Shown here: piece after piece, positions 10,599 through 55,624 of the stretch
How the letters are laid out: each line of letters starts with the position of its first letter
Position numbering within the stretch: position 1 is the stretch's first letter
Source of the DNA: a virus
Length of the DNA: 64,000 nucleotides
Direction: 5' to 3' (one strand)
Virus record (IMG/VR): IMGVR_UViG_3300020166_000747
Notes under the pieces: model-generated
What the model saw: only the letters and a program-made list of their open reading frames with translations
Told to the model about the DNA's origin: nothing
Databases searched by the model: none
Translations under genes and position numbers: made by a program

Positions 10599-10600
10599 AT

Positions 10601-22604: not shown

Positions 22605-23536
22605 TATTTGTATCCTATTTTCATGTAATATTGTTTATCACCGTATGTGATAACACCAGTGTATAGTTCAAAACTCATTGGAAATTGCTTGTTAAAGTTT
22701 TGTGAACTTGCAAACGGTTTAGGTACATCACCAGTTTCACCGACTAGTACAAGTCTGCGCATGTCTGGAATCATCTTATACCAATCTTTATAGTTCTTCA
22801 AATAACTAATATTAGTATTAATAAGAGTTCCAGGAATTTCTGAGAATGGATTACTTAGCTCACCGTTCTGTAATTGTGTGATAAACGTATGTTCATCATA
22901 TCCGATATTGAACAAGTCTTGTGTCGTTGCTTTGAAGCGCCAGTCTGCAAGTAGTTCTTTACTCATCATTTCATCTGCTAAGAATTGACATACACCATTG
23001 ATGTCAAATGAGCGGATATTCTCGAATCTAAGTCTAGTGTCAAATAGCATCGCTGGAAGGATTCCCATGCCGCCGCCAAGAACATAGATTGCACCAAGAT
23101 ACTTTTCACCGAATGCATGTTGCATCTGTTGTGTAATCCAACTATATACTTTAGCATTCTCTTTGTTAACGAAAGATGAAATGTCAACGTTTGGATACGA
23201 GTAAATGATTTCTTTTAATCTGTCTGTTAGCTTGTCTTCAATTGGCGGAGTAATATGTGTCAAGAAGTCCATTGCTTGGCGATAGTTACCTAGTTGTTGT
23301 GCAACGTTCTCTTTTGAGTATGTAACTGCCATATCTTGATAATCGTAATCAAGTTTCGCTAGTGGCTTTTCACGTCTACGACTAACACGCTTGTAGTTGA
23401 TTGTTTCAGTAATCTCTGGTTCTTCGTCCAATTCTTCCTGTTCAATCAAGTCTGTTACGCCAACCTCATCGTATAACTCATCATTCTTTTTAATGTTTGC
23501 AGCTCTGCGGTTTCTACGTTCACGTATATTACTCAT
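22604..23536 (-). CDS. Methyltransferase-like paralog of the 21198-22604 C-terminal domain
   Basis: YVLGGGMGIL, IRSFDING, RFKA, LINTN, YYMKIGYK align with the adjacent protein. Confidence 0.55.
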   Translation of the reverse strand: MSNIRERRNRRAANIKKNDELYDEVGVTDLIEQEELDEEPEITETINYKRVSRRREKPLAKLDYDYQDMAVTYSKENVAQQLGNYRQAMDFLTHITPPIEDKLTDRLKEIIYSYPNVDISSFVNKENAKVYSWITQQMQHAFGEKYLGAIYVLGGGMGILPAMLFDTRLRFENIRSFDINGVCQFLADEMMSKELLADWRFKATTQDLFNIGYDEHTFITQLQNGELSNPFSEIPGTLINTNISYLKNYKDWYKMIPDMRRLVLVGETGDVPKPFASSQNFNKQFPMSFELYTGVITYGDKQYYMKIGYK

Positions 23537-35881: not shown

Positions 35882-36652
35882 ATGAAAATAGTGTTAGTTA
35901 CAGGTGGGTTCGACCCATTACATTCAGGACATATTGCATATTTTAAAGCGGCAAAAGCGTTGGGTGACAAACTAGTTGTAGGTGTTAATACAGACGCATG
36001 GCTTACTAGAAAAAAAGGCAGCCCGTTTATGCCAAGCAGTGAAAGAATAGCAATAATTCAGAATTTAAAAATGGTAGATGATTGTGTAGTGTTCGATGAC
36101 AACGATGGCTCAGCCATAGATGCTATTAAAAATTTAAAAATATTATATCCAAATGATGATATTATCTTTGCTAACGGCGGTGACCGCACTAAAGAAAACA
36201 TTCCTGAAATGATTTTTGATGATGTTGAATTTGTATTTGGCGTAGGCGGTGAAGATAAAAAGAATAGTTCATCTTGGATACTAGAAGAGTGGAAAGCTCC
36301 TAAAACAATTAGATCATGGGGATATTATAGAGTGATACACGAATATGATAATCATACTAAAGTAAAAGAATTAGCAGTACCTCCGGGCGGGATGTTATCT
36401 ATGCAACGACATAAAGAACGTTCAGAACATTGGTTCGTAGCAGAAGGAACTGCAACTGTGAATACATTAAATTCTAGCAGTACTGATGTTGAAGAACATG
36501 GAGTATTTCATAAGCATCAATCATTACATATACCCGTAGGTATGTGGCATCAGCTTGTCAATGCACACGATACTGATTTAAAGCTAGTAGAGATACAGTA
36601 CGGAACTAATTGTGTAGAAGAAGATATTGAGCGAAATGACACGGTTCTTTAA
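35882..36652 (+). CDS. Cytidylyltransferase-family domain fused to mannose-6-phosphate isomerase type II cupin
   Basis: TGGFDPLHSGH, FANGGDR; RSWGYY, LSMQRHKERSEHW, VEIQYG..EEDIER. Confidence 0.9.
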   Translation: MKIVLVTGGFDPLHSGHIAYFKAAKALGDKLVVGVNTDAWLTRKKGSPFMPSSERIAIIQNLKMVDDCVVFDDNDGSAIDAIKNLKILYPNDDIIFANGGDRTKENIPEMIFDDVEFVFGVGGEDKKNSSSWILEEWKAPKTIRSWGYYRVIHEYDNHTKVKELAVPPGGMLSMQRHKERSEHWFVAEGTATVNTLNSSSTDVEEHGVFHKHQSLHIPVGMWHQLVNAHDTDLKLVEIQYGTNCVEEDIERNDTVL

Positions 36653-39674: not shown

Positions 39675-39702
39675 AAAAAGACGCTTTCGAGCGTCTTTTT
39701 TT
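39675..39702. terminator. Bidirectional intrinsic terminator
   Basis: AAAAAGACGCT-TTCG-AGCGTCTTTTTTT between convergent genes. Confidence 0.9.
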
Positions 39703-39707
39703 ATGGT

Positions 39708-40940
39708 TTATTTTATTGTTCTAGTGTTGCCGTAATGCTCTACTATAACACCGCTAACAGCATTGAACTTTCTCCATGGGTCAACTACAATTGAACGTTC
39801 TGGAATATCACAATACAATGCATCTTTGTGTGAATTACCAGTGTACTCATACGTAGTAGATGCACTGTGCGCCATTAAAAATACTGCTGGGCCTGTTGAT
39901 GTTCTGTCATCATCTGTCATAGGGTCTACATACTCAACATCAATACCACACTCATTAATATACGTTGCAATCAACATACTATAACTTCCCTCTAAGTATG
40001 GGACATTTGGCTTATATGCCTTACCATGAATAACGATAGGTAGATTGTTTTCATTCGCATGTTTCATTAATCTTAACGCAATATTCTTAGCTTGTATCTC
40101 TCTTGCATTCATAATAGCATCAAACATATCATACCCCAAGTCTAGCTCTTCTGCCATATAACGTAACGCAATGTTATCACGTGGATGACATCCACCGCCA
40201 TCTCCCATGCCAGCAGTCATATATTGTGGCCCCATGATGCGCATAGTACTGTGTGCTAGTGCATTTGTTACTACGTCTACATTGATATTACCTTGCTTTT
40301 CTGCAACGTCTTGTATCATGTTTACTAGACCAATCTTAGCACTGATGAATGTATTGTAGAATACTTTTATTGCTTCGCATTCATCCCATGTACCAATCTC
40401 ATAACGTGGGTTGTTTTCCATAATTGTTTTATAGAAGTCAGTTAATTGTTTTGCATCTCCGTTGTGATCTCCATCTTCTGTGCCGATCATAACCATTTCT
40501 GGATTAACCATATCATATGCAACACTTCCCATGGCGATCAAGTAAGGGTTATATACGAAGCGTGGGTTAGTGATGTGCTGTACGAAGTGCTTACGGGTCG
40601 TCCCTGGCAGTACTGTGGAGATAAGAACAAGTAGTTGACTATCATTCATATGTTCATTTGCTTCTTTAATAACATCAATAACGATGTCATAGTTGAAGTC
40701 TTTGGGCGCCAAGTGTGCCGTCGGTGCATTACCATCATACATTGGGTCATGTGGGGTTGGTACCGCAACGAATACAATGTCTCGGTCTTTAACTAGTTCT
40801 TGTATAGTAGTAACTACAGTTATGTCATCACTTGTTCTGGGAGAGACATCATACCCCTTAACCTCATGTCCTTTTTGTGCAACTGCTTCTGCACATGGCA
40901 TCCCAAGTTTGCCAACTCCGATAAATCCAATCTTACTCAT
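39708..40940 (-). CDS. UDP-glucose/GDP-mannose dehydrogenase family protein
   Basis: GVGKLG, FVAVPTP, STVLPGT, KVFYNTF, GDGGGCHPRD, AYKP. Confidence 0.93.
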   Translation of the reverse strand: MSKIGFIGVGKLGMPCAEAVAQKGHEVKGYDVSPRTSDDITVVTTIQELVKDRDIVFVAVPTPHDPMYDGNAPTAHLAPKDFNYDIVIDVIKEANEHMNDSQLLVLISTVLPGTTRKHFVQHITNPRFVYNPYLIAMGSVAYDMVNPEMVMIGTEDGDHNGDAKQLTDFYKTIMENNPRYEIGTWDECEAIKVFYNTFISAKIGLVNMIQDVAEKQGNINVDVVTNALAHSTMRIMGPQYMTAGMGDGGGCHPRDNIALRYMAEELDLGYDMFDAIMNAREIQAKNIALRLMKHANENNLPIVIHGKAYKPNVPYLEGSYSMLIATYINECGIDVEYVDPMTDDDRTSTGPAVFLMAHSASTTYEYTGNSHKDALYCDIPERSIVVDPWRKFNAVSGVIVEHYGNTRTIK

Positions 40941-41035
40941 TTATATCACCCGATCCAAATTGTTCTGTTATATTTTAAATACAGTATATTTATTACTGCT
41001 GATTTAGTTGTTACCATAAAATAATATTTATTATA

Positions 41036-42361
41036 TCATTTTCGTTCTTCTATGTAAGAAAAATTAATACCGTTACGCTGATATGACGTAATAAGATTAT
41101 TATAATTTTGTTGTAATCGTGCTATGTATGTACCTTCAGAGGTTTTTCTCTTGAAAAAGTTTTGCCCCAATGATAGGTTCACCCGCTTAATCTCATCTCT
41201 CAATTCAAGCAACCTTAATTTAGTATCTTCAGTACTATCATACGAATGTGAAAACACATCGTCGAAGGTATCATATCCTAATTGTTTCAGCGCAGATACA
41301 GTACCGACATCCGCCCACGTTAAAAAGGGCTGACCTAATAGGAATGGTTTAAAACTTTTCTCACTTAGGAACGTAGTATCATTCGTAGCCCATGTCTCGC
41401 ATATAAATTGATAATACGTATCGCTAAGATGATCTATATTGATAGTATTAACTAAATTTATATGCAGGTCTTCGGTTGATTCTTTACCGTTCTGAAGATT
41501 ACCCCACGATAGTACTTCCTTAATTGAATCTGTATATTCAATACCAGTGTAATTTACATACTGATATCGTATAAAGTCGTTGGTAGACTCATTGACATTA
41601 TTTAATTGAACAGTAGTATATTGATCTACCGATCCTCCCCAACTCCATATCATAGTGTCGAGTAAATTTTCTTTATGTAATACTGACATTGCATTAATTC
41701 TATGATCTCTTATTCGTCTATTATAGAATGTGTTCATGTACTTGCGGGTTTCATTTTGGACGAGATCATTTTTATACTTATCTAGGTAAGATTTGATATT
41801 CTGAGGCGTGTGCATTCCAAGACCTGCGCAACTCCGTTCCCAGTAGTTTATCCACATTAATGTAATACCTGATGGGTCTGTTACAGGAGTGTTATAACGA
41901 TAATCGCCGGTTAGAAAAATCACACTACTCGGTTCAACGCCTAATAGTTTTTTAACATAGTTCATGTTTATACTATGATAACCTTCAAGCGCATGAAATA
42001 CCAATACCTTAACTTTACCTGCATTGATCTGTTTCCTAATATTATTAGGAATGTTAAATATTATATTATTCTGAATGAAATATTCATTAAGTTTGTCTGG
42101 ATCATTGTAAATTTCCTCCAATTGCTCCAAATGTGCAACACCTCTAGTCATCTGAGGCGAAATTGCATTCATAGCGAACTGATTAAAGTTTCCCTCAGAA
42201 TAGCACGATATTAAATAATATATCGTATCGTCATCTCCGTGATCAGTATTACGGAACTCTACCTGAGGTAATATAGTTAACGTGCTTAGTTCATCTGAAT
42301 TAACAATGTTATGGGGATAAAATTCTTCTTCTGACTGTACATATAGATATCTATTTGTCAT
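41036..42361 (-). CDS. Hypothetical protein, SEKSFKPF family
   Basis: YNRRIRDHR, ICET, FLSEKSFKPFLLGQPF, GYDTF..FSHSYD. Confidence 0.55.
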   Translation of the reverse strand: MTNRYLYVQSEEEFYPHNIVNSDELSTLTILPQVEFRNTDHGDDDTIYYLISCYSEGNFNQFAMNAISPQMTRGVAHLEQLEEIYNDPDKLNEYFIQNNIIFNIPNNIRKQINAGKVKVLVFHALEGYHSINMNYVKKLLGVEPSSVIFLTGDYRYNTPVTDPSGITLMWINYWERSCAGLGMHTPQNIKSYLDKYKNDLVQNETRKYMNTFYNRRIRDHRINAMSVLHKENLLDTMIWSWGGSVDQYTTVQLNNVNESTNDFIRYQYVNYTGIEYTDSIKEVLSWGNLQNGKESTEDLHINLVNTINIDHLSDTYYQFICETWATNDTTFLSEKSFKPFLLGQPFLTWADVGTVSALKQLGYDTFDDVFSHSYDSTEDTKLRLLELRDEIKRVNLSLGQNFFKRKTSEGTYIARLQQNYNNLITSYQRNGINFSYIEERK

Positions 42362-43298
42362 TGGTGTATTCCGTCAATAATTGTCCAGCAATAATCTGAT
42401 TTGCAGAAGGCGTCCAATGACCACAAGACAAAAACATATCAGAGACATCAAAGTTGCTTTCTTTGTTCCATACGTTATCGATTGACCCTGACAGGTCTAC
42501 TCGTTTTAGCTTAGATTTCTTTTCTAGTTTTACTAAATTTTCATGAAACCAAGACAGATCCTCAGCACTGTACACTGTATCCAGGATAGGGTCGTTCAGT
42601 AGGTAATAAAAAGGAATATCCAATCCTCGACACATCCAATACATTTGAACAAAATAATTTTCACATTTAATTAAACTATTCAGTGGAGTCGCCCATTCAG
42701 CAAAATATGTCATATATTCTCGCTGGGCTTTGCGTAACACCTGTTTCTGGTTGATGCCCATTGTTTCTTCAGTAACTGGATTCTCAATAGTCTGATTGAA
42801 ACAAAAGGCTTTATTTTCATAAGTATTGTCATATAATATAGGACTATCAATATTATATCTATTATATACGTCAGTATAATTCATATAACTAGCTGAGATA
42901 GTAGAAAAGAATCTATTCAATGGGGCAAGGTTAAAAACAACTGCTTTTGTTTTTTTTGCGTACTCGGAATTAAACCATTGGTTCAAAATCTTCACTGTGT
43001 ATGTATTGTCAGCACCTGGCTGCCCTAAATTTATAAATTTAGTATCGCCGCTCAATTTATTAAGACAGTAATCAATTGTCTGGTGTGGTCCTACGCCATC
43101 ACCGTAAATAAAACTATCTCCGACTAATACTACAATATTTTCATATGAATCTATATCGTCGATATTAGTACGTGATGGCAAGTCACTTGGCCAATGGTCG
43201 TGGGAATGGTTAAAGGGAATTTTCTTTCCTTTGCCATCAAACCATGAAGTATCAGCAAAAGATGAAAATTGAGTATTTTTTATTCTATTATCTGGCAT
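42351..43298 (-). CDS. SGNH/GDSL-like protein
   Basis: VGDSFIYGDG, NLGQPGADN, GHWTPSANQIIA; start at 43298 after GGAG. Confidence 0.7.
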   Translation of the reverse strand: MPDNRIKNTQFSSFADTSWFDGKGKKIPFNHSHDHWPSDLPSRTNIDDIDSYENIVVLVGDSFIYGDGVGPHQTIDYCLNKLSGDTKFINLGQPGADNTYTVKILNQWFNSEYAKKTKAVVFNLAPLNRFFSTISASYMNYTDVYNRYNIDSPILYDNTYENKAFCFNQTIENPVTEETMGINQKQVLRKAQREYMTYFAEWATPLNSLIKCENYFVQMYWMCRGLDIPFYYLLNDPILDTVYSAEDLSWFHENLVKLEKKSKLKRVDLSGSIDNVWNKESNFDVSDMFLSCGHWTPSANQIIAGQLLTEYTNDK

Positions 43299-43731
43299 AA
43301 TAATCTCCACAATGTCCGTAAATAGGTACATTTATATTTATATTTATATTTATATACACGTGTGGAGTTTCAAAATCTAAGAACACCGACTTTGGTCCAG
43401 GGATCAATACTTTGTGCAATCCCCATATGAAGCCGCCTGACGTGAAAACGTAGTCATCTGCGTCATGCGAAAACATATTTAATTTACTATCACTACCTAG
43501 TATCTCTGCTGATTTCCGATCTTTAAGATGCACGAATACATTAGGCTTATTCACTAGTTCATATTTAAATAATTCCTGAGGCTCATCATGACCGAAATAT
43601 AACTTTCCGTTGTATTCCTGTACATCGACTTCAATACCGAATCCCTGATTATAAGCGTGTTCTAAGTATGCAATCTTGTTCTCTTCTGAAGAAGGACCAG
43701 CAATGTTTCCTCTGTGTGCAATGTAAATCAT
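43288..43731 (-). CDS. Short glycerophosphodiester phosphodiesterase-like protein
   Basis: IAHRGN, GIEVDV, FGHD, HLKD, GHCGDY. Confidence 0.75.
   Translation of the reverse strand: MIYIAHRGNIAGPSSEENKIAYLEHAYNQGFGIEVDVQEYNGKLYFGHDEPQELFKYELVNKPNVFVHLKDRKSAEILGSDSKLNMFSHDADDYVFTSGGFIWGLHKVLIPGPKSVFLDFETPHVYININININVPIYGHCGDYYAR
43330..43353 (-). repeat. In-frame hexamer microsatellite (ATAAAT)x4
   Basis: Encodes ININININ; creates overlapping TATAAATA boxes. Confidence 0.9.
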
Positions 43732-43758
43732 TTAAAGTCTCCCAATAAATTATAATTC

Positions 43759-44358
43759 TTACAATAATCCATTTAAAATCTCATACGTTTCTTTACTAGA
43801 GTTGACTCTATATACATGGTCTACGTCAGACCGCATTGCGGCTTCATATCCAACATCACTATCCTCAATGATACATGTCTCTGTTTTATTTACGCCAAGC
43901 AGTCGTATTGTTTCGTTGAATATATATGGGTCCGGTTTTCTCTTGTCTATGGGAAGATAGTTCGCAGTTAATACTACTTCAAACATATCTAAGTTGAATT
44001 GGTTCAATACACTGAAAACAAACTTGCTTCTTGCATTGCTTGCTAATGCAACTCGTTTGCGCTTTGATAGCTCACGTAGTTGATCGATTAACATAGTGTC
44101 CATGTGTACAGTGTTTAGGTTCGCATCAGTATAAACTTGTTTTAACTCGTACACAGAACCCGGATCGATACCCTGCGCAAATTTACTATTAATATAGTCA
44201 ATCTTATTGAGTGTCGGGATACCTTCAAGCAAATCTTCTAACTCTGTAGTTATATTGAAGTCGCTAACTTGTGCAACTGCCCAAGAAAATGATTTACGGT
44301 GCAATTGGTTAGCGTCTATTAAAGTTCCATCTAAATCAAATATATAACAATCATGCAT
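43759..44358 (-). CDS. HAD-family phosphatase
   Basis: IFDLDGTL, LASN, KPDP, IEDS..G. Confidence 0.92.
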   Translation of the reverse strand: MHDCYIFDLDGTLIDANQLHRKSFSWAVAQVSDFNITTELEDLLEGIPTLNKIDYINSKFAQGIDPGSVYELKQVYTDANLNTVHMDTMLIDQLRELSKRKRVALASNARSKFVFSVLNQFNLDMFEVVLTANYLPIDKRKPDPYIFNETIRLLGVNKTETCIIEDSDVGYEAAMRSDVDHVYRVNSSKETYEILNGLL

Positions 44359-45049
44359 CGATATAACCTAAGTAGTCTTTTGGAGTCCCAATGGGGTTGA
44401 AGCTATCTACTTCAAACGCTTTAACTAAATTACCAGATTGTATTATATAATTATACAATGGCGCGATATAGAATTCACCTTCGCTTGTTAGATCAGATGC
44501 TTTGAAGAAATCATATGCTTCCATAAACAACTTACCCGATTGAAAATGATATTGACCAGTGTTTCTAAATTTCGATATAGGTTGTTTCTCTGCTATACCG
44601 TATACCCTCATGTTACTATCCACACAAGAATAGCTACTCTTTTTATCCCATTGACAATGTTCAACTAAGACAATACTACATTCGTTTGTATTTTTTGTAA
44701 ATGCATTAAAGTCTAAATCTAATACAAAGTCACAATCTGCAATTAACCAAGGTTCATTGATGTACTCGCTATCTTTTATAACATACGATGCACTAGTTGC
44801 TGCACCGTCCGTGTAGTAATCAATACTACTAATAATACCGTCTTTATAATTCGGTGAATACTTTTCTATATGCGATTCTTGAAATAGAAAATGATAACGC
44901 ACATCTGCATCATTGTCAATAGATAAACTATCCAATGCGTATGTAAACATTTGCTTACCATTAACGTCTATAAACGGTTTCGGAACATCCGAATAATCTG
45001 CAAAGCGGGAGCCCTTGCCCGCACACAATTGCAATATATTAAGTGTCAT
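44351..45049 (-). CDS. Sugar-phosphate nucleotidyltransferase-like protein
   Basis: AGKGSRF..PKPFIDV, TDGAA, ADCD, AEK, GEFYIAPLYN, IGTP. Confidence 0.85.
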   Translation of the reverse strand: MTLNILQLCAGKGSRFADYSDVPKPFIDVNGKQMFTYALDSLSIDNDADVRYHFLFQESHIEKYSPNYKDGIISSIDYYTDGAATSASYVIKDSEYINEPWLIADCDFVLDLDFNAFTKNTNECSIVLVEHCQWDKKSSYSCVDSNMRVYGIAEKQPISKFRNTGQYHFQSGKLFMEAYDFFKASDLTSEGEFYIAPLYNYIIQSGNLVKAFEVDSFNPIGTPKDYLGYIDA

Positions 45050-45050
45050 A

Positions 45051-46097
45051 CTATGCTTCTAATTCCCTAATAAAGGTTTTGATTTGACTTTCTACATTAT
45101 CACCTGAATGTAACCAGCCGCCCGTGTTTGCTAACCATTGGTTACCAATTTCATCACGTATATTTTTTGCAACATCTGGTGTCATCCCACAGCTTAAAGC
45201 TGCCCAAACATTGTGCTTCTGACACAGTGAAACCGCGTCACGTACTTCTTGGTGGTCGCCTGGATAATAGCCGCCAATCATACCTGCATGAATACTGTCG
45301 ATGCCTTGATAGATTGCTAGTTTTACAATTACTGTCCAATCAATGCCAAATGGATTACTGGGATCTGTGTACGCTCTGATGCCACTTCGTTGGAAGTGAG
45401 TGAATAGGTTGCGTTCATTGCTATCAGCATATGCGCCTAGCCCACTCCAGAAGTTAATGTGTACTCCATCACCTCGATATGCTTTAACTAAATCTAACTG
45501 CTCAATTAGATGTGCAGGATTACCATTAACGCAGTATGTGTATACAGTGTCAGGATGTTGTTCCATAATAGGCTGTATTAATTCTAATCGTCTTTCAAGC
45601 GGTAAATACGCTGGATCTCCAAGTATCTCATCTTCTTTTATAAAGTCTATCCCACCGTTACACATCTGCGTTACAATGTCAACTAACTGCGCGTCAGTTA
45701 ATCCAGCTTTGGGCTTGACGATGCTACCGATTAACGGACGATTGCGTGTCTCGTTAAGTTTCTTAGTTGGTGTTTTTTTAGTAAACGGCTGATTCAGTTC
45801 TATATCTACGATTCTGCATACGTTAATCAACCCGATGTCGCTTTGTCCACCATTAATCGTACATAACATCTGTCCGATATCTTTAAGTGAATGTAGGTTT
45901 CTCCATTTAAAATCGATAACAACTTTGTTATCATCGATTGATATTAGCTCTGCCATACTTTGGATAATACCGGCTGCTGTCTCATATGAACTTCTGATGT
46001 TGGGGTTACCAACACTCTGTCCAATTACAATAGCTTCTGCTGCCTTAGGTATATCAATGCTTTCGACATGATATGTCACTCTATACGAATCGTTCAT
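45051..46097 (-). CDS. RuBisCO-like protein (form IV)
   Basis: RPLIGSIVKPKAGL, GGIDFIKEDE, HFQRSG, IHAG, LSCG, TGG; carboxylation-specific residues appear substituted. Confidence 0.9.
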   Translation of the reverse strand: MNDSYRVTYHVESIDIPKAAEAIVIGQSVGNPNIRSSYETAAGIIQSMAELISIDDNKVVIDFKWRNLHSLKDIGQMLCTINGGQSDIGLINVCRIVDIELNQPFTKKTPTKKLNETRNRPLIGSIVKPKAGLTDAQLVDIVTQMCNGGIDFIKEDEILGDPAYLPLERRLELIQPIMEQHPDTVYTYCVNGNPAHLIEQLDLVKAYRGDGVHINFWSGLGAYADSNERNLFTHFQRSGIRAYTDPSNPFGIDWTVIVKLAIYQGIDSIHAGMIGGYYPGDHQEVRDAVSLCQKHNVWAALSCGMTPDVAKNIRDEIGNQWLANTGGWLHSGDNVESQIKTFIRELEA

Positions 46098-46124
46098 ATT
46101 TACCTCTGTTAGTTATGTATGTAC

Positions 46125-46832
46125 TTATTTATACTCTTTAATACATGCATCAATATATTGCGCAATTAATTTATGTCCAGTTTCATCTGGGTGTCCCGAC
46201 CTCTTGAGATTAAAATCACTCAGGTCGTATCTAGAATTCGCATGCCAGTGCCAATCTGATGATGAAATGTCCTTTATTTTTCCGTCGGTTGCAACGTCAA
46301 GTAATGTTCTATCAGCAAAAACCATTCGATCAACACTATTATGAACTTTATTATCATAGAATGCATTAACATTGATGATTGGGATATCTTTAGCTAACCA
46401 ATGTGCAGTGCATAATTCATTATAAAATGTATCTATAAATTCATCATCTGCCAATGTTTTTGTCACAGACACAAAACGATCATGTGTATTGGTTTCTAAC
46501 TCCCAATCACAACGCCTGTTGGATGCTCTAAATTGTGAGGTCCATGCTAGAATTATTATATCAATAGTAGTATCCATTGTCAAGCGATCATGTAATATTT
46601 CTAATATTTGCCTATTAGACACGCCAGACTGACTTAGATTTTCTACCTGGTATTCACCGCTAAGAGATAGTATAGTTGACCACCGATGAGTGTCTACATA
46701 CGCATGATTTTTTTCACACTTTACAGTAAAATCCGGACCGTATTTTGTTATAGCTTCTTCTTCTGTACAAATAGAACGGTCCCATAATTCAGCGCCCCAT
46801 GTCCAACTATCACCTATACATAATACTTTCAC
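46125..46832 (-). CDS. SGNH/GDSL-like protein
   Basis: IGDSWTWG, NLSQSGVSN, GHPDETGHKLIA. Confidence 0.72.
   Translation of the reverse strand: MKVLCIGDSWTWGAELWDRSICTEEEAITKYGPDFTVKCEKNHAYVDTHRWSTILSLSGEYQVENLSQSGVSNRQILEILHDRLTMDTTIDIIILAWTSQFRASNRRCDWELETNTHDRFVSVTKTLADDEFIDTFYNELCTAHWLAKDIPIINVNAFYDNKVHNSVDRMVFADRTLLDVATDGKIKDISSSDWHWHANSRYDLSDFNLKRSGHPDETGHKLIAQYIDACIKEYK
46126..46133 (-). promoter_or_regulatory. Late promoter box TATAAATA upstream of the RLP gene
   Basis: Exact TATAAATA overlapping the upstream stop codon, followed by a GAGG RBS. Confidence 0.45.
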
Positions 46833-47155
46833 TCAACTACTACCTTATCGTTAAATCCTAAGCTAGGTGTTTTAACGCATACGATATGACATTCTTCTAA
46901 CAACTCTACAATCGTTACTTCCTTAGGATCAAATATGAATATGTCACCTGGTCCTAATGTTTCTCCGTTTGCAATTAAACTGCCAACAAGCAACAGATTG
47001 TACTCAGTAGATAACTCCTGATAATGTTTCTCTGGTGTATCTTCTTTCTTGTGAATTTGAAATCCAACTTCAAATTCTTCAGTTTTTAAAATTGCAGGTT
47101 CAAAGTTTCCTATGAACCACCCTCTTGTAAAGTTTTCAATACGTTCTCGTTTCAT
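46829..47155 (-). CDS. Small cupin-fold protein
   Basis: RGWFIGNFEP, HYQ..TEYN, GDIFIFDP, VKTPS. Confidence 0.6.
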   Translation of the reverse strand: MKRERIENFTRGWFIGNFEPAILKTEEFEVGFQIHKKEDTPEKHYQELSTEYNLLLVGSLIANGETLGPGDIFIFDPKEVTIVELLEECHIVCVKTPSLGFNDKVVVE

Positions 47156-47227: not shown

Positions 47228-48166
47228 ATGAAAATTGGCGTATTATTAATGGGACAGGTTAGAAATTTTGACGTAACGACAGAATTTCTAAAAAAAGAAT
47301 TTGACTTGCCGGGAGTAGATGTAGACTATTTCTGCCATACGTGGGACTCAGTTGTTAATTTTTCACCATGGAATAATATGAAAACAACTGACGAAAGATT
47401 TTCTGATTTGCAGATGCATGATCAAGGCAAACTCATGGACACTATTAGCCTTATTAATCCAAAAAAATCCATTATAGAAAGTTATGACAAATTAGAAGAA
47501 ATTTTTGATACAATTTATCACCCAGAATACAAAAATGAGACAACCAATGTTGTACATGACAAATTTTTAGGATGTGGTTGGGCGGCTTTTGACAGTGATA
47601 GCACTCTCAAGTTCTCTGATTGGAATTACTATTTCAGTCTATTAGGTCAATTTTATAGTACTAGCCGGGCATTAGATTTGCTTTGTGAGTATGAAAGAGA
47701 AGTTGGAATAAAATATGATGTCATTGTGCGTTGGCGTTATGATTTGGTATCGAACACTCATTACCGAGATACTGATGCCCGTGTTAACCAATGGTGTGTT
47801 AACCCAATGAAACATGAACACGGAGATACTATATTCTTTAATTCTTTAAGTATCTGGCGGGGCATGCAATGCGCTACTGATCATATGTGGTTTGGGGCGG
47901 CTGGTGCATTTAAGAGTTATACCGCAAACTTTGATCAAAAATATATTAGTTTGGTTCGTGCAAAAATAATGAACAACAAGACAGTACTCAATGAAAACGC
48001 AGTACAAGATATTATTATTAATCAGAAGATGTCTTCTAAAGAATCCAGTATGGGATTAGCGGTCGTAAGACCTGGCGCAACTAAAGAAATGTCGTTTGAC
48101 GAATTATATGATTTGGAAATCGCACATGAAGCGCAAAAACGATCATTAGCATTGAGGAGTCAATAA
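47228..48166 (+). CDS. Putative glycosyltransferase-like protein (GQxR / HxW / RxD family)
   Basis: MKIGVLLMGQVR, FCHTW, YDVIVRWRYD, TDHMWFG, NE. Confidence 0.55.
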   Translation: MKIGVLLMGQVRNFDVTTEFLKKEFDLPGVDVDYFCHTWDSVVNFSPWNNMKTTDERFSDLQMHDQGKLMDTISLINPKKSIIESYDKLEEIFDTIYHPEYKNETTNVVHDKFLGCGWAAFDSDSTLKFSDWNYYFSLLGQFYSTSRALDLLCEYEREVGIKYDVIVRWRYDLVSNTHYRDTDARVNQWCVNPMKHEHGDTIFFNSLSIWRGMQCATDHMWFGAAGAFKSYTANFDQKYISLVRAKIMNNKTVLNENAVQDIIINQKMSSKESSMGLAVVRPGATKEMSFDELYDLEIAHEAQKRSLALRSQ

Positions 48167-48999
48167 TGAAGATAGCATTAGCATTTTTTGGACAGCCGAG
48201 AGGCATAGACAATGATATGATTATCGAACAATGGTTAAGGATACTAAGAGATTCTTCGGAAACTTGCACTTTTGACGTGTATGCTCATTTTTGGGATAAC
48301 CAAAGTAATACTAAAATTTCAGATACATATGAAGAATTTGTTAAAGAAACCCAAGTTGATGCTAACACACATTTTGACAAATTTATAAAGGCATTTAGAC
48401 CGAAACAACTACACATTGAGCCTTCAAACGTACTAGATAAATTATCTAGTTTGTATTTTAGCAATAATGAATATGTAAACGCACGAGTTGATCCGGCTAT
48501 TCCAAGTACTGGACGAGCGACTATTGGCCAATGGTATAGCACCGAACGGGTACTGGACCAGGTTATTAATAGCGGAGTAGAATATGATATAGTCATCAGA
48601 ATCAGACCAGATATAATATTCGAACAGACCGAAAGCCATCATAGATTTTTTGAATTTTCGCTAATAAACCATTTTAAGGCATGTGCTGTCGGTAACAGAT
48701 GTATTGGTGTTCCTTCTATAGAAATAAAATCAGGAACTCCGATTCTGAATGATTGGTGGACGGTTATGTACGGAGGTTTTGTTGAAGAGTTTAAAACAAA
48801 CTTAACAAAAAATATATCATCGCAAATCAATGCAATATTTACAACTTTAGATACACCAAATAGTATACAAGAAAATGCACTACACCGACATTGCATCAAA
48901 CTTGACATCAACGCAGTTTCAACAAAAGCTGAGGCGAGAATTTATAGAAAAGAAGAAGGAACTTGGGTATGGCCTAATTACTTAGTAGATAGCAAATAG
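48166..48999 (+). CDS. Putative glycosyltransferase-like protein, tandem paralog
   Basis: MKIALAFFGQPR, YAHFW, YDIVIRIRPD, NDWW, QE. Confidence 0.55.
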   Translation: MKIALAFFGQPRGIDNDMIIEQWLRILRDSSETCTFDVYAHFWDNQSNTKISDTYEEFVKETQVDANTHFDKFIKAFRPKQLHIEPSNVLDKLSSLYFSNNEYVNARVDPAIPSTGRATIGQWYSTERVLDQVINSGVEYDIVIRIRPDIIFEQTESHHRFFEFSLINHFKACAVGNRCIGVPSIEIKSGTPILNDWWTVMYGGFVEEFKTNLTKNISSQINAIFTTLDTPNSIQENALHRHCIKLDINAVSTKAEARIYRKEEGTWVWPNYLVDSK

Positions 49000-49004
49000 A
49001 TTAT

Positions 49005-50228
49005 CTACGTGTGATACTTAGTCTTAACACTGTCCCACGTACTTTGCATTTCTGCATTAGTATCTTTTCCACAGAAAATTGAACAAGTGCGTAAGCGTTT
49101 ATTTCTTACATTGTTATCGTTAAAGTTTTCGACATATTTTTCTTGGAACATTGGACCATCAATTATATCTTTCAGTGTAACATGGCGAAGAGAAATTTTA
49201 TCTTTACCATAATCATTGATAAACGATTTTAATTGTGATGTTTCTTCATTATCATATGCATAATACTTGCTTGCAGTGAAGCAACAGGGCCATACTAATC
49301 CTTCACTACTGACAAAGAAACTATCGGATTTCAAAACTAGACAATCAATTTTTGTAGAACCTAAATCTTTTTCCCATTGGGTCAATGGTCTAGTGTTATC
49401 CATTTTAAATGGCTTCGGAATATACTTAGGCCTATGTTCCTCTAACTTAAAAGTTTTTAATGCGTGTTTCGATTCTACATCCTCGCCGTCAACCTTGTTA
49501 AACGTTGTCTTACTAATATAATCCTTGATGACATTATTTTGCCAGCGACCTTCCATTGGAGGTTCAAGTACATAATCTAACTGTCCAGTTTCATTAAACA
49601 CATGCATTGCCGGAGTAGCCACTCTATCCGTATCACTATTGACAAATCCGAGTGCCTTTTTATGAAAGAAGTGATCAAACCCCATTTCTTTAGCTAGTGC
49701 CTCTGCTTCAGTAACTTGATGTTGATTGTGCTTGAATACTAAATAATCCCAACGTGCAGTTCCGCCAGCCCCTATATAATTTTTGGCTGCGGACATAATC
49801 TTATGCCAGTGAGTCCCACGACGATAGATATGGTTCGTATCTTCTAACCCATCGATACTAAAAGTAACATGCCCGTTACTACCGACAAGCCTACCTAAAT
49901 CCTGCCAGAACTTTTCATTACGTCCACTTGCATTAGTATTCATAGTCACTTTGATGTTTGGATTCAATTCCTTTGTGTACTCTAGAATTGAAATCAATTC
50001 TGGGTTTGTCATCGCATCGCCATAATTACCACAGAAAGAAATAGAAAATAATCTAGAGATTAATTCAACTGGGAACCATTTTTTGTATTGTTCTAACGTA
50101 ACATACGTTTCTGTAAACATCGGATTCTTTATACCGCCGGATTGTCGTCTGTTACAAACCGGACATAATGCGTTACACAAGCTGCTCACTTCTAAGTCCA
50201 AATGTTGTAGTCTGTCATATGTATACAT
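49005..50228 (-). CDS. Radical SAM/SPASM-twitch protein (GNYGD subtype)
   Basis: CNALCPVC, FCGNYGDA, FSIDG, PCC, CSIFC. Confidence 0.92.
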   Translation of the reverse strand: MYTYDRLQHLDLEVSSLCNALCPVCNRRQSGGIKNPMFTETYVTLEQYKKWFPVELISRLFSISFCGNYGDAMTNPELISILEYTKELNPNIKVTMNTNASGRNEKFWQDLGRLVGSNGHVTFSIDGLEDTNHIYRRGTHWHKIMSAAKNYIGAGGTARWDYLVFKHNQHQVTEAEALAKEMGFDHFFHKKALGFVNSDTDRVATPAMHVFNETGQLDYVLEPPMEGRWQNNVIKDYISKTTFNKVDGEDVESKHALKTFKLEEHRPKYIPKPFKMDNTRPLTQWEKDLGSTKIDCLVLKSDSFFVSSEGLVWPCCFTASKYYAYDNEETSQLKSFINDYGKDKISLRHVTLKDIIDGPMFQEKYVENFNDNNVRNKRLRTCSIFCGKDTNAEMQSTWDSVKTKYHT

Positions 50229-50230
50229 AA

Positions 50231-51421
50231 TTAATGTATCCTCTTAAATTCTGGTAAATAATCGCCGATAACTTGGTTACGTATCGTATCTAAGTTACGA
50301 GTGTATTCTTTTGCTTGTTCCCATTTCTCTGGTTTATCAGGTCCACCGAACATGTTTTTAAATTCTTTTAATTTGTAATCTTCAAATACATTACTAAATC
50401 GTTCATGTATGCTATCACGCATAGCTTTAGGTAATGCTGCAGGGGATAGAATGTCTGGATCATACACATAGTTATGATGAACCCATACTCCATGTTCTCT
50501 ATGGAAGAAGTTATAAAAGTCTCCTAGAGTAGAGTAGTTCATCCATGATACAGTTTGCGTTACATCAATTTCAAAGTCTTCTTCCTTAATACGTAAGAAG
50601 TTCTTCATAACAGTGTCCCATTTAGTTGGGTATCGAATGTAATGATTTCTATCACCTAGGTCGTCGATGCTACAACTAATCTTCACATGATCGAACTTTC
50701 TCCATAACTCTATCACTTCTTCACTCATTAGCGTCATGTTGATATTGTACCACAGTTTGATATCTGTTTTACCCATATCAACTAAACGCTCTAAGAACTT
50801 AAAGTGTTCTTTGATTAGTGTTGGTTCTCCACCATTAATATAGAATGTCTTTACTCTGTCGCAATGCTGTAGTAAGTCATTCCAGAACTCTTCACGTTCA
50901 GGCCATCTAAAGCCTTCCATCGTGTCATAGCTTGTGAGTTTGAATGTTGTACTGCTTTGTAGTTTGTCGTAATCGTTACGCCATTTAGATGATGATGCTG
51001 GATTACAAGTACGACATGCAACATTGCAAACATTACCTAATCTAAGCTCAACGAAATCGAGTTGTACATCTTTCATGTAGCCAGTATCGTCAGTGGCGTC
51101 CCTAGCGACTCCTACAGTGTACTCAGGATAGTTCTTAATCTCTTCTAACCGTTTGCTTTGCATACCTTTTGCTTCTTCCGAGTAACAACGCATACATGCC
51201 TTAGGCTTCTTTCCATCAAGTACTTGTACTCTTGCTTTGCGGAATGACTCGCTATTCATCGTTTCGAATACGGTATCTCTGTTGAGATTATAATAACGTC
51301 GATCACCATCTTTCGCACTACTAAGTGCTTGTCTGTGATCCGCAATACAGCAATGCGTCACACCCCCATGAGGATGTGTCGCTAGGTGTTGAAATAGTAA
51401 TGGGCAGAATGTATCAGTCAT
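50231..51421 (-). CDS. N-terminal twitch-domain radical SAM protein
   Basis: FCPLLF..HCC..CMRC then CNVACRTC, NGGEPT. Confidence 0.92.
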   Translation of the reverse strand: MTDTFCPLLFQHLATHPHGGVTHCCIADHRQALSSAKDGDRRYYNLNRDTVFETMNSESFRKARVQVLDGKKPKACMRCYSEEAKGMQSKRLEEIKNYPEYTVGVARDATDDTGYMKDVQLDFVELRLGNVCNVACRTCNPASSSKWRNDYDKLQSSTTFKLTSYDTMEGFRWPEREEFWNDLLQHCDRVKTFYINGGEPTLIKEHFKFLERLVDMGKTDIKLWYNINMTLMSEEVIELWRKFDHVKISCSIDDLGDRNHYIRYPTKWDTVMKNFLRIKEEDFEIDVTQTVSWMNYSTLGDFYNFFHREHGVWVHHNYVYDPDILSPAALPKAMRDSIHERFSNVFEDYKLKEFKNMFGGPDKPEKWEQAKEYTRNLDTIRNQVIGDYLPEFKRIH

Positions 51422-52697
51422 TATCTATTTGCCCGTGTACATACGCAGATAACTCAGGGTATACCGCTCTCCAATCTAAGTTTCTACGTTGATCCATCTT
51501 GTCGGAGTATGAAACGAATTCTCGTAACATTTCTAAATCAGGTTCATTACTTTCGATTGCTTTATAATATCCCGTTAACATATCAAATTCTTTAGTATCG
51601 GGGTTAACCAAATCTATTAGTTTTTGCAAGTCCGGTAACACGTAACTTCCAAACTTAGTTGGATCTAAAAATGGTGGGTTTTGAATAATGTTCCAGCTTT
51701 GTTCAATCTCTTTATCGTAACGTAGTTGATAGTCCAATACTTTTTGTCGTAATTCCCAATTAGTAGGCGTGGTCAGCGGACAAATTGTACTATGTACTTG
51801 AACTGTAATGCCATCTAATTCCATTAGTGTATTGAAGTTCTCTTCCCATTGCTCCAAGTCTATCCCGTAACGTGAATATTCTTGTTCAGGTCCCCATGCA
51901 TCAATACTACATACAACAATCCAATTGTCAATTTTCCCAGTAGCGATCATTTTTTGAATCCTTGCAAGTTTCTGTTTGAACAGGCGAGGTTTATGCATCA
52001 AATTACTAAACATCTTTATACCGATATTAGAATTATCATTCTCCGATTCTTCAAAGAATGATAAACATTCCTCGAACTCTTCTTTCTGATACAGTGGTTC
52101 GCCACCTAAAATATGAAACATTTTAATTTTGTGTGAATGTTCGTGCATCCATTCCCAGAACTCACCCTTGCGCTTTTCGTATCTATTTGAACTTGAGAAA
52201 TTACCATCAAGACTATAGTACTTACTAGCAGGACCATACTTTTTAATCTCTGCTTCAATTTTACTACTAAATTGCGGTGTGCAATATGTACATGCTAGAT
52301 TACATGTATTCTTAAAGTATACCTCAACACAGGTAGGAGTCACTTCGTCTTGTAATTCGTTGTTTTCAGAATACATAATTTCATGCGGATTCCAATTATT
52401 CATCGGAGTGAAAACCTGTCTTTCACTCTTGCCGCCGGAATCTTCGACACGTTTGCAGTATTGGCAACTGTCCTTAGGCCACTTCCCATCAACCATGCGC
52501 TTGCGTTCTTCAACTAATTTCGGATGCTTGTTAAAATCTTTAAAATTATCGTCCGGCGATAGATTAAATCCGCCGGTTCGGTGACACATATTGATTTGGT
52601 CAAGACTTAGATATAATGTTAACCAACTCCATTTTAACGCACACGCTGCCTCATTCTGAATAGGGAACATTCTTCCTGATTTATTTTCTTCCATCAA
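51414..52697 (-). CDS. N-terminal twitch-domain radical SAM protein (CxxKW subtype)
   Basis: CALKW..MCHR..CQYC then CNLACTYC, LGGEPL. Confidence 0.92.
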   Translation of the reverse strand: MMEENKSGRMFPIQNEAACALKWSWLTLYLSLDQINMCHRTGGFNLSPDDNFKDFNKHPKLVEERKRMVDGKWPKDSCQYCKRVEDSGGKSERQVFTPMNNWNPHEIMYSENNELQDEVTPTCVEVYFKNTCNLACTYCTPQFSSKIEAEIKKYGPASKYYSLDGNFSSSNRYEKRKGEFWEWMHEHSHKIKMFHILGGEPLYQKEEFEECLSFFEESENDNSNIGIKMFSNLMHKPRLFKQKLARIQKMIATGKIDNWIVVCSIDAWGPEQEYSRYGIDLEQWEENFNTLMELDGITVQVHSTICPLTTPTNWELRQKVLDYQLRYDKEIEQSWNIIQNPPFLDPTKFGSYVLPDLQKLIDLVNPDTKEFDMLTGYYKAIESNEPDLEMLREFVSYSDKMDQRRNLDWRAVYPELSAYVHGQIDND

Positions 52698-54081
52698 ATC
52701 GTCTCCACCAAAGATACAGTTCTGTATCTAATTTGTAAATATCTTCTAGCCGATATTGTTCTTGTCTAATCTGGTCAAGTCTATCTTGATATCCTTTACC
52801 ATTCTTAAACTCTTGTTCGTGTGTATCTGGCCATTGTTCTGCAAATGTCGGACGTTTCTTCATTTCATGTAGAGTGTTAATAAGTGTCTCTTGCTTTTGT
52901 GTACCACGTGGTTCCATATATGCTAATAACTCATCAATTTTTCTGTCAAGAATATGACGTGGCCACGCAAACGGTGACATAACAATATCAGCATGAAATG
53001 CAAACATGATTTTTGTTTCCATGCGCACATCTAATTCTAGTGATAAGTCAAACAAATCTTTTAATGAGAACATGCCTGGACCTGTGATAGTCAAGTCAAA
53101 TAGCATTTTATGCTTACCACCAGGTGCTGCCAGTCCTTGCTTGAAGTTATCTAGCCATTCTTCCCATACGATACCCTTACGAATAAACTCTACAATATCA
53201 CCAGTACCATCGATAGATGCGCACATTAACCAGTCTTTAAACTGTGGTAGATAATCAAATAGATTTTTACCTTTGAAGTCTACACGTGATAGATTAGAAT
53301 TATAACGCAAATAACAGTTCTTTGCAGAACCGTTGTTTACCATTTCTTCTAATGCCCACCAATGCATATCATACATAAGAGGTTCGCCGCCGACCCAATA
53401 GATTTCTTCTACTATGCCGTCACTAATTGCTTTCTTGAACTCAGGTTCAGCAACGTCTTTCTGAAACTTTTGCATTTTCTGTTTAACAGTAGGTTGCATA
53501 AAGGGCTGATTTTCAATACTCCACATGTCGTGTTTCTTCTTTTCAGCTTCCCATGCACTTGATAATTGCTCACCGCACATACGACACTTGAAGTTGCACA
53601 AGTTTGAATAACGATAGTCAAAGGAAATTACTGGCATTTCTGTACGCCCATCATCATCTGTCTTATCAAATGCTTCTTGTATCTTATCTTTGAATAGTAC
53701 ACCTGTGAACCATTTGCGATACGAACTTAGTGATAGAGTGTCATCATTACACACATCACATTGTGGAATGCGCTCTCCTGCCATTAGCTTCTTACGAATG
53801 TCACGCATGTAAGGAGAGTTCCAATGTTCTTCTAGCGTTGTTGGATTAAAGTCATCAACGTCAGTTTTAGAATCTGTTACTTCCCCATACTTTGAATCAT
53901 TTGATGCATCGATATACTGCTTTTGAAAAGAGTGTTCTTCACGTGATGCACAACACATTCTACGTTCACCTTGTGGCGAGATATAAGTATGTGACCACGG
54001 TGCCATACAGAAAGTTTTGTTTTCACTTTCTTCAGCACAACTTGCATCATCTTTCCAGATTGGTACGATTCGTTTAGTCAA
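52681..54081 (-). CDS. N-terminal twitch-domain radical SAM protein
   Basis: FCMAPW..MCC..CDVC then CNFKCRMC, VGGEPL. Confidence 0.92.
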   Translation of the reverse strand: MTKRIVPIWKDDASCAEESENKTFCMAPWSHTYISPQGERRMCCASREEHSFQKQYIDASNDSKYGEVTDSKTDVDDFNPTTLEEHWNSPYMRDIRKKLMAGERIPQCDVCNDDTLSLSSYRKWFTGVLFKDKIQEAFDKTDDDGRTEMPVISFDYRYSNLCNFKCRMCGEQLSSAWEAEKKKHDMWSIENQPFMQPTVKQKMQKFQKDVAEPEFKKAISDGIVEEIYWVGGEPLMYDMHWWALEEMVNNGSAKNCYLRYNSNLSRVDFKGKNLFDYLPQFKDWLMCASIDGTGDIVEFIRKGIVWEEWLDNFKQGLAAPGGKHKMLFDLTITGPGMFSLKDLFDLSLELDVRMETKIMFAFHADIVMSPFAWPRHILDRKIDELLAYMEPRGTQKQETLINTLHEMKKRPTFAEQWPDTHEQEFKNGKGYQDRLDQIRQEQYRLEDIYKLDTELYLWWRRFDGRK

Positions 54082-55624
54082 CTATAATTCCTCCGAGGGC
54101 ATCAGTCTCCGTATCCCACCCACCTACTTTTATTTTCTGTTCGTGTGCGTCATCTCCGCTACCATACTCTTCAGTCGTAGCAGGATCAAGCCCACGTGGT
54201 GCATTTTCAAGAATAAATGTCTTAGACTTTATTTGTTCAGCGGTGGGGACTTCTGCCTCAAGTGTGTTATACCAATCAGCCATCGGACCTTTAAAGGTTT
54301 CAGCGAAACTCTTATTACGTCTTACATCAAACTGTGAAAAGAATGCCTTAAAGTCGTTGTACAATTTACCTTGATCTGCTGTGTTCTTATGTGGTGTTTT
54401 AACAATATCAAGATAGTCGATCAGTCTGCGTACACTTGCGCGTTCATGTTCGAATATTTTTTTACTATTAAGAAAAAGCCATGAAGTCAATTTGTCTTTG
54501 TAGTATTTTTTAAGATGTTCTGGTAAAATCGCGGCACTCTGAAAACTTGGGAATCGTAGAATGTTCAATGTAAGCGAAGGAGCACGTGGTCCGTATTCTT
54601 CACGTAGTTCAACTATTTCATCCATAAATTCAGTGATGCTATTTAAGCACAACGAATTGATTGTCATCATCATATGTAGTTTCTGTACATTAGATTCTTT
54701 AAGAACACGATGGATACTATTCATCCATTTGTCATAATCCAAACCGTCACGTATATACTCAGCTTGATCTTTTGTTGCTTCCATAGAAGTGTAGATTTCA
54801 AAGTTAGGAACATACCAAGACTTTTCAATCAACTTGTCTAGTACTTTAGGAGTTTCTGGTGACAAGTTACTATTAATAGCAAATCGCATATTACGACCAC
54901 GATCTGGGTTCTTTTCAAACCAATCAAACAACTTCCAAGTACCCGTATGCATGATGGGTTCGCCACCAGTAATACGAATTTCTTCTAGACTGTCTGCTAA
55001 ATCACTTTCCCACCATGTATGAAACGCTTGAATGAATGGATTGTCTTCTGCTTTCTTTGTTGTAGGTTCTGCCCACGGAGCAGTGTCCATAAAGTGGCCG
55101 CGCCCATCAGACTGAATATTTTGATATGCGCCATAATCATTGATGTCTTTAACCCATGCAGTTGAGAATGCTGGATTACAGTAAGTACACTTTAGATTAC
55201 ATGCTCTATCAAATGAGATTTCAAGTGTACGCAACGGTACATTGGAATCCCATGGCATTTCCATACTCTTGTCAAGGTCTTCATTGCTGAAGATTTCAGT
55301 TTTGAATACGCGGTCAGAGATATGGTCTTTGCCCATATCTTCTACTTTCCAACAGTATTCGCATTCACTAGGACGTTCGCCCTCTTGCATCATCTTACGC
55401 ATCTTCTTCTTATGCATAGTATTATGAATTGCAGAAGGATTGTCTTTTAGTTCTTCGACTGGAATCCAGTGTCCAGGTGGGTGATGACAACTTGTAGTTT
55501 GCCCATGACCCAACCAAATAGTTGCATTATACCATTTTGCACCACAATAGCTTGCGCTCTTGGTATCAATTATACGTTCTTTATACTGATGAAGGGTTTC
55601 CCCATTCTTGTTGTCACGCGCCAT
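54074..55624 (-). CDS. N-terminal twitch-domain radical SAM protein (CxxKW subtype)
   Basis: CGAKW..SCHH..CEYC then CNLKCTYC, TGGEPI. Confidence 0.92.
   Translation of the reverse strand: MARDNKNGETLHQYKERIIDTKSASYCGAKWYNATIWLGHGQTTSCHHPPGHWIPVEELKDNPSAIHNTMHKKKMRKMMQEGERPSECEYCWKVEDMGKDHISDRVFKTEIFSNEDLDKSMEMPWDSNVPLRTLEISFDRACNLKCTYCNPAFSTAWVKDINDYGAYQNIQSDGRGHFMDTAPWAEPTTKKAEDNPFIQAFHTWWESDLADSLEEIRITGGEPIMHTGTWKLFDWFEKNPDRGRNMRFAINSNLSPETPKVLDKLIEKSWYVPNFEIYTSMEATKDQAEYIRDGLDYDKWMNSIHRVLKESNVQKLHMMMTINSLCLNSITEFMDEIVELREEYGPRAPSLTLNILRFPSFQSAAILPEHLKKYYKDKLTSWLFLNSKKIFEHERASVRRLIDYLDIVKTPHKNTADQGKLYNDFKAFFSQFDVRRNKSFAETFKGPMADWYNTLEAEVPTAEQIKSKTFILENAPRGLDPATTEEYGSGDDAHEQKIKVGGWDTETDALGGIIVD

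Follow-up and report, generated by a model that had tools for sequence, protein, structure and literature searches.

A divergent phage RuBisCO-like protein linked to a sugar-phosphate nucleotidyltransferase, with a possible role in nucleotide-sugar biosynthesis

Background

To our knowledge, all functions so far assigned to RuBisCO-like proteins (RLPs) belong to salvage or catabolism. Divergent 'form IV-like' RLPs have been described from phages and Beckwithbacteria, and their function was called 'unclear' (Jaffe, Castelle, Dupont and Banfield 2019, Mol Biol Evol 36:435; PMC6389311). Here we analyze an RLP gene in the viral record IMGVR_UViG_3300020166_000747 of IMG/VR, of which a stretch of 64,000 nucleotides (the window) was studied. 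The gene lies next to that of a sugar-phosphate nucleotidyltransferase (NTase) within a run of nine co-oriented minus-strand open reading frames (ORFs) at 39708-47155, and our results suggest that the two proteins probably belong to one pathway, in which the RLP would be an active enzyme that does not carboxylate.

An initial annotation, made from the letters of the window alone, had proposed a new, biosynthetic role for this RLP. The phage RLP clade as such has been in print since 2019 and only the biosynthetic reading is new; searches of the literature yielded no relevant paper that connects RLPs with nucleotide sugars, with nucleotidyltransferases or with the biosynthesis of polysaccharides.

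Results and discussion

Linkage of the RLP to the nucleotidyltransferase

For the analysis of gene context we took 128 loci whose RLP has 30% identity or more and looked for NTase homologs within 6 kb of it. Such a homolog is present in 120 of these loci, viral as well as cellular; of the eight loci without one, six are contig ends. The RLP-NTase loci come from phages, SAR11, Legionellaceae, Francisellaceae, Nonomuraea, the Candidate Phyla Radiation (CPR) and DPANN. In four loci from Legionellaceae the cassette is pared down to the RLP-NTase pair, and the two proteins are naturally fused in three architectures, namely NTase-RLP, RLP-NTase and RLP-NTase-cupin (P0125-P0137). Linkage, bare pair and fusions together suggest that RLP and NTase serve the same pathway, for which linkage and fusions are the strongest available evidence.

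The NTase itself gives NCBIfam matches of the AglF/GlmU/HddC type, and its family profile matches PDB entry 4evw at 1.7e-36. In the N-terminal G-x-G-x-R loop the residues A10, G11, G13 and R15 are conserved, and among 24 family members PF00483 was found in 11 and PF12804 in 20.

Fold and active site of the RLP

The AlphaFold model of the RLP (pLDDT 90.5) is placed by Foldseek onto form III RuBisCO and RLP structures with TMq values of 0.82-0.87, the form III structure 2d69 reaching 0.87; 1tel and 3nwr, which represent the DeepYkr, Photo and NonPhoto RLP clades in PDB, are fold neighbours only. Compared with RuBisCO the protein is truncated at both ends and stops 21 residues past the GG motif, without a C-terminal tail. 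Members of the family measure 330-400 aa.

The active-site columns were compared across 109 distinct RLP relatives (RuBisCO equivalents in brackets). K128-P-K130 (K175/K177), K154-E-D156-E157 (K201/D203/E204), H270 (H327) and S302 (S379) are retained without exception, as are G304 (G381) and G326 (G403); G327 (G404) is conserved except in two relatives, and R237, the equivalent of R295, is lysine or arginine across the family. Just as invariant is the replacement of four carboxylation residues, E60 by Q27, N123 by G84, H294 by Q236 and K334 by Y277. These kept and replaced positions had been assigned correctly by eye in the initial annotation, and the loss of all four carboxylation residues bears out its statement that the protein does not fix CO2. 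A metal site of carbamylated lysine, aspartate and glutamate together with a K175-type base makes the enediolate from a ketose phosphate. K154, D156 and E157 along with K128 are the residues expected of the RuBisCO superfamily, with K154 as the predicted site of carbamylation. The invariance of the pattern in all 109 relatives suggests selection on the enolisation machinery and loss of the carboxylation machinery. Taken jointly, a catalytically competent but non-carboxylating RLP and a pathway shared with the adjacent NTase appear to us the probable interpretation of these sequence patterns.

Proposed pathway

The RLP would enolise an acyclic ketose phosphate and then re-protonate it to an isomerised or epimerised sugar phosphate, to which the NTase would couple a nucleoside monophosphate. 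The cupin may epimerise the product further, and DUF7796-like or other transferases would attach the unit to a glycan, be it on the virion, on the infected cell or, where the genome is cellular, on the cell surface. For the window HAD hydrolase a mutase or phosphatase step may be considered; in most relatives the RLP would occupy the place that HAD or RpiB holds in cassettes without an RLP. The most likely substrate would be a pentulose phosphate (ribulose-5-P, xylulose-5-P) or bisphosphate. A pentulose phosphate is the best guess because ribulose-5-phosphate is the compound on which RpiB acts, a confirmed NTase partner in Bellamy-type phages, and also DHBP synthase, a partner that only ESM Atlas lists; in addition, a homolog of RibB occurs in one RLP locus (L072).

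On the whole, we hold it for rather probable that the RLP enolises a ketose phosphate and so contributes to the supply, or possibly to the tailoring, of a nucleoside diphosphate (NDP)-sugar for a glycan. More tentatively, the RLP family could be an undescribed biosynthetic branch of the RuBisCO superfamily which turns a ketose phosphate of the pentose-phosphate pathway into a rare sugar phosphate and hence into a new nucleotide sugar; in the same tentative scenario, this sugar would be destined for virion or surface glycans of phages abundant in the sea and in fresh water as well as of SAR11, Legionella, CPR bacteria and DPANN archaea, exchanged between phage and host.

Cassettes with and without an RLP

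The NTase belongs to a family far larger than that of the RLP, of which 2,977 representatives were counted at a cut-off of E <= 1e-30. In a second sample of 80 viral loci selected by NTase, 11 contain an RLP and one of those 11 a HAD as well. The remaining 69 have no RLP; 62 of them have a HAD, and in 35 cases it forms the N-terminal part of a fusion with the NTase. In raw counts RLP and HAD therefore mostly alternate (Fisher 1e-7), and the partner label switches at least 7 times on the NTase tree, where one clade (support 97) unites the window (RLP and HAD) with L234 and L235 (HAD only) and L003 (RLP only).

Two cultured cyanophages also carry RLP-less cassettes. S-CAM9 (L202) has a HAD-NTase, a miniature GDPD-like phosphodiesterase (mini-GDPD) and three DUF7796-like genes, and Bellamy (L203) an NTase-RpiB fusion, a cupin and an NTase-NTase gene. 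Genes annotated as 'hypothetical protein' in these two phages correspond to mini-GDPD, cupin and DUF7796-like cassette members, and gp206 of Bellamy, annotated as 'phosphatase', is the NTase-RpiB fusion. The RLP-less cassette even exists as single polypeptides. Giant NTase-GDPD-HAD-NTase(-unknown) fusions of 1,000-1,300 aa were seen in P0144, P0147, P0178, P0190 and P0182, and an NTase-NTase-GT2 protein in P0150. The GT2 part of the latter is of the polyprenyl-phosphate transferase (ArnC/DPM1) type, which points to a true glycosyl donor.

From the swap of RLP, HAD and RpiB beside the NTase, we read the cassette as one that would take its sugar phosphate from interchangeable upstream enzymes, the RLP among them. 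The expectation of the initial annotation that linkage with both NTase and HAD is conserved holds for the NTase, including the fusions, but HAD occurs in only four RLP-selected loci besides the window. Since HAD is no conserved partner and mostly alternates with the RLP beside the NTase, the suggested order of dephosphorylation followed by activation does not apply to the family as a whole.

Several points weigh against the proposed pathway. When the exclusivity of RLP and HAD was assessed on phylogenetically independent pairs, 2-3 pairs were informative and the result was not significant. The window carries both RLP and HAD, so that sequential steps fit as well as alternative ones. Weak IspD-type matches occur in 7 of the 24 NTases, and a LicD-family gene flanks the Legionella RLP-NTase pair, making a phospho-polyol donor possible. 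Finally, the RLP tree was built without DeepYkr, Photo and NonPhoto RLP references.

Instead of acting ahead of the NTase, the RLP might act after it and isomerise or epimerise an NDP-linked keto sugar or an NDP-ketopentose. Fusions are known in both domain orders, many phages run the cassette without an RLP, which could then be an optional add-on, and the window retains its HAD alongside the RLP, all of which would suit such tailoring; in addition, the Legionella NTase could draw directly on a common metabolite and the kept R295/H327 equivalents could hold a diphosphate. This order of steps predicts, however, that RLP cassettes are supplied by HAD, which besides the window is found in only the four loci mentioned above, and all characterised RLPs known to us act on free acyclic sugar phosphates. 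We therefore regard it as unlikely and give preference to an RLP that works upstream of the NTase.

Cassette partners and the type of donor

The cupin is present in 50 RLP loci; in some cases it forms a fusion with the NTase or with RLP-NTase. The mini-GDPD is present in 51. Its profile matches the GDPD 7e0v at 8.4e-5, its model has a pLDDT of 90.5, and the top Foldseek matches are GDPDs at a probability of 0.98, yet with TMq of only 0.41 and TMt of 0.29. The residues H6, R7, E34, D36, H48 and D49 are invariant. At 147 aa and with no match in the Pfam search, the protein lacks the complete (beta/alpha)8 barrel of ~230-250 aa; profile and fold nevertheless back the GDPD-like label that it had been given. 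Within its gene, three overlapping matches to the motif TATAAATA at 43335-43354 (-) represent a (TATAAA)n repeat that encodes an 'ININININ' insertion. The insertion is not present in any of 21 aligned mini-GDPD homologs (21/21), and residues 124-128 adjoining it have a pLDDT <50 in the model.

Two tandem DUF7796-like paralogs, divergent from the run and named via ESM Atlas labels, match their family HMM at 1.2e-59 and 2.1e-16. This viral family, for which no sequence match to PDB was found, occurs in 31 RLP loci and is a candidate for the transferase. Other glycan genes of related RLP loci encode GT25, GT61, 4,6-dehydratases and a methyltransferase.

Some of the partners are compatible with another kind of donor, an NDP-activated ketose phosphate or polyol phosphate comparable to CDP-ribitol or CDP-xylulose, which would be transferred as a phosphodiester-linked unit rather than as a glycosyl residue. 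The gene for a phospho-alcohol transferase of the LicD family (PF04991, 1e-42) stands divergently beside the RLP-NTase pair in four Legionellaceae genomes (L123:6645-7496 (-) and L124-L126), the phosphodiesterase-like protein is frequent in the cassette, and the IspD matches of the NTases would fit as well. So would the RibB (DHBP synthase) homolog at L072:2630-3262 (+), which matches Legionella RibB at 6.5e-56 and, on a 131-kb viral contig, shares a gene run with a second NTase and the RLP cassette. LicD is however confined to a single lineage, as it was not found beyond Legionellaceae among the RLP loci examined, and is thus a hint only. The best relatives of the NTase are sugar-1-phosphate enzymes, and the NTase-NTase-GT2 protein implies a glycosyl donor. 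Viral DHBP-synthase-NTase fusions listed by ESM Atlas would also fit the phosphodiester-linked unit but could not be confirmed. A search for longer proteins gave only a HAD fusion, and the N-terminal half of P0180 matched neither PDB nor Legionella RibB. A phosphodiester-linked unit consequently seems quite improbable to us, and a sugar phosphate activated to a glycosyl donor remains our preferred product.

Phylogeny and distribution

As references the RLP tree included form I and form III RuBisCO, MtnW, OiaX and four acid-sugar RLPs that are linked to kinases, and those for the RLPs came from annotated plasmids; a genome search with PF00016 returned mostly form I RuBisCO, used only as outgroup. 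The RLP family forms one clade (support 100) that joins the form IV references (support 99) but lies outside the MtnW and OiaX types. At its base lie cellular branches (Legionellaceae, Francisellaceae, Nonomuraea, Elusimicrobia, DPANN, SAR11), and in a derived clade phages are intermixed with SAR11, CPR and others. The window RLP falls into a long-branched, almost wholly viral subclade together with its nearest relative, a sequence of 75% identity on a 202-kb IMG/VR contig. The family comprises 1,919 word-index matches and is found on 379 IMG/VR contigs and in many cellular genomes. The window RLP has no PHROG match and no match among 50,697 deposited phage genomes.

On all NCBIfam models for RuBisCO and RLPs the protein scores 38-79 bits against cut-offs of 409-700. 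It obtains 68.7 vs 497 bits on the form III model and 77.5 vs 438 bits on the large-subunit model; genuine form III sequences reach 444-551 bits. On the MtnW model TIGR03332 it obtains 38.2 vs 513.6 bits, and on the OiaX model, its best match (3.7e-22), 78.7 vs 700 bits. Genuine form III proteins reach 170-265 bits even on the foreign MtnW and OiaX models, which indicates that the RLP family is unusually divergent.

An auxiliary gene of catabolism or salvage (methionine salvage, acid-sugar or apiose breakdown), placed in a glycan island by chance, would agree with OiaX as the best NCBIfam match of the RLP and with its grouping with form IV instead of forms I and III. Scores far under every cut-off, the separate clade and the NTase fusions speak against it, as does the neighbourhood, where mtn genes, a DUF1537 kinase and a transporter are not nearby as they are for reference RLPs; none of the recurrent neighbour families examined at RLP loci is labelled as a DUF1537-type kinase. 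We consider this explanation very improbable, in line with the initial view that the protein is neither MtnW nor another known catabolic type. A working CO2-fixing RuBisCO, suggested by the fold and by form III enzymes as the nearest structures, can practically be dismissed given the invariant replacement of K334, E60, N123 and H294, the missing C-terminal tail and the missed NCBIfam cut-offs.

The gene run and its surroundings

The genes of the run, whose extent agrees with the initial annotation, overlap or lie only a few bases apart (Table 1).

Table 1. Genes and other features in and around the RLP gene run of the window
Feature	Position	Strand	Remarks
Small cupin	46829..47155	-	108 aa; opens the gene run; profile vs PDB cupins, 7zvm 1.3e-5
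SGNH-like by eye	46125..46832	-	235 aa; GDS...GHP motifs in translation
RuBisCO-like protein (RLP)	45051..46097	-	348 aa, intact; PF00016 7.4e-26
Sugar-phosphate nucleotidyltransferase (NTase)	44351..45049	-	232 aa; start codon 1 nt past RLP stop codon
HAD hydrolase, beta-phosphoglucomutase subfamily	43759..44358	-	199 aa; PF13419 5.3e-19, TIGR02009 1.4e-22
Miniature GDPD-like phosphodiesterase	43288..43731	-	147 aa; motifs HR...ExD...HD...HxK
SGNH-like by eye, accessory	42351..43331	-	326 aa; GDS...GHW motifs in translation
441-aa protein, accessory	41036..42361	-	without family match
NDP-sugar (UDP-glucose type) dehydrogenase	39708..40940	-	410 aa; closes the gene run; PF03721, PF00984, TIGR03026 2e-49
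Two tandem DUF7796-like / 'capsular polysaccharide biosynthesis' paralogs	47228..48999	+	312 + 277 aa; divergent from the operon
Hairpin	39675..39700	.	11-bp stem, T runs flanking both sides; between convergent gene ends

Family or profile matches support the earlier labels of NTase, HAD, dehydrogenase and cupin, although the TIGR03026 match of the dehydrogenase falls under the cut-off of that model; its homologs were found in only 8 related loci. For the two SGNH-like genes the motifs can be seen by eye, but Pfam searches gave no match and the 235-aa protein has no NCBIfam match either. The 441-aa protein, labelled as SEK family, has no family match in Pfam or NCBIfam searches that would support this name. 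Homologs of these three genes were not found across the related RLP loci.

The hairpin is likely the terminator of the operon. At 46555-46583 (-), within the 235-aa SGNH-like gene and ~450 bp upstream of the RLP start, lies a perfect sigma-70 consensus (TTGACA, 17 nt, TG, TATAAT; 12/12), which could serve RLP-NTase as an internal promoter. Overall, the window shows no enrichment of sigma-70-like sites, nor of the T4 late-promoter motif TATAAATA (7 found vs 8.5 expected).

The window looks like part of a large phage. It contains HNH endonucleases, DHFR, thymidylate synthase, a Nol-like carbamoyltransferase and a jumbo-phage protein family, and these phage-type genes as well as the viral contig of the closest RLP make the viral origin assumed at the outset reasonable. 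No tRNA genes were found in the window, and its DNA did not match deposited phage records. The best phage relative of the Nol-like carbamoyltransferase, at 50% identity, is from the Ralstonia jumbo phage RsoM2USA, and its neighbour is an ORF of 1,506 aa at 23529-28049 (-) without PHROG match.

Genes for radical SAM/SPASM proteins are numerous (49005-57182 (-) and 9423-17820 (-)); six of them adjoin the cassette in tandem, and several have an N-terminal SPASM-like domain. At 35882-36652 (+) a cytidylyltransferase-like domain (PF01467) is fused to a cupin of the mannose-6-phosphate-isomerase type (PF01050), with homologs in 9 RLP loci.

Comparison with known systems

If the biosynthetic reading is true, an RLP with the anabolic task of building glycans would extend what is known of the chemistry of the most studied enzyme fold. 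It would provide a function for a clade on 379 phage contigs plus SAR11 and Legionella loci, and a nucleotide sugar that is new and matters for the recognition between phage and host might come to light. Proteins in which NTase and RLP are naturally fused, along with cultured Legionella species that have the bare RLP-NTase pair (carriers include Legionella nautarum and L. maceachernii), make the question directly testable.

The closest described proteins, the phage and Beckwithbacteria RLPs of Jaffe et al. (2019), are likewise divergent, come from large myovirus-like contigs and Beckwithbacteria, and depart in key residues from known form IV. Their match to the present family was judged by proxy, from a Beckwithbacteria sequence (L095) and 47 viral entries inside the family clade. 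Gene context was not reported in that study; the present analysis adds the NTase cassette, the fusions and the cellular lineages SAR11, Legionellaceae, DPANN and Nonomuraea.

MtnW (YkrW), the 2,3-diketo-5-methylthiopentyl-1-phosphate enolase, has in common with the window RLP the RuBisCO fold, the form IV super-clade and, as predicted for the RLP, a carbamylated-lysine metal site and an enolisation that is free of CO2. It stands however on a separate branch and is flanked by methionine-salvage genes, none of which occurs at the window RLP. The acid-sugar RLPs of the OiaX/DUF1537-kinase type also belong to the super-clade and give the best NCBIfam match, but they measure ~420-430 aa and are located in a catabolic context beside four-carbon acid-sugar kinases, transporters and regulators.

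With respect to the pathway, the nearest parallels are those to nucleotide-heptose and CMP-Kdo, in which a ketose phosphate is converted to a rearranged sugar phosphate and then to an NDP-sugar by a ketose-phosphate isomerase, a HAD phosphatase and a nucleotidyltransferase. The HddC-type matches of the NTase and the HAD-NTase fusions common in RLP-less cassettes are in keeping with these pathways; the differences are that the RLP would replace an isomerase of SIS or RpiB type and that cupin and mini-GDPD are extra here. BcbE and BcbG are needed if the type B capsule of Pasteurella is to bear its fructose side chain (PMC13552107). Closest in gene content are the cassettes of the cyanophages S-CAM9 and Bellamy, which have homologs of the NTase, mini-GDPD, cupin and DUF7796-like genes arranged in the same way and differ from the present locus in having no RLP.

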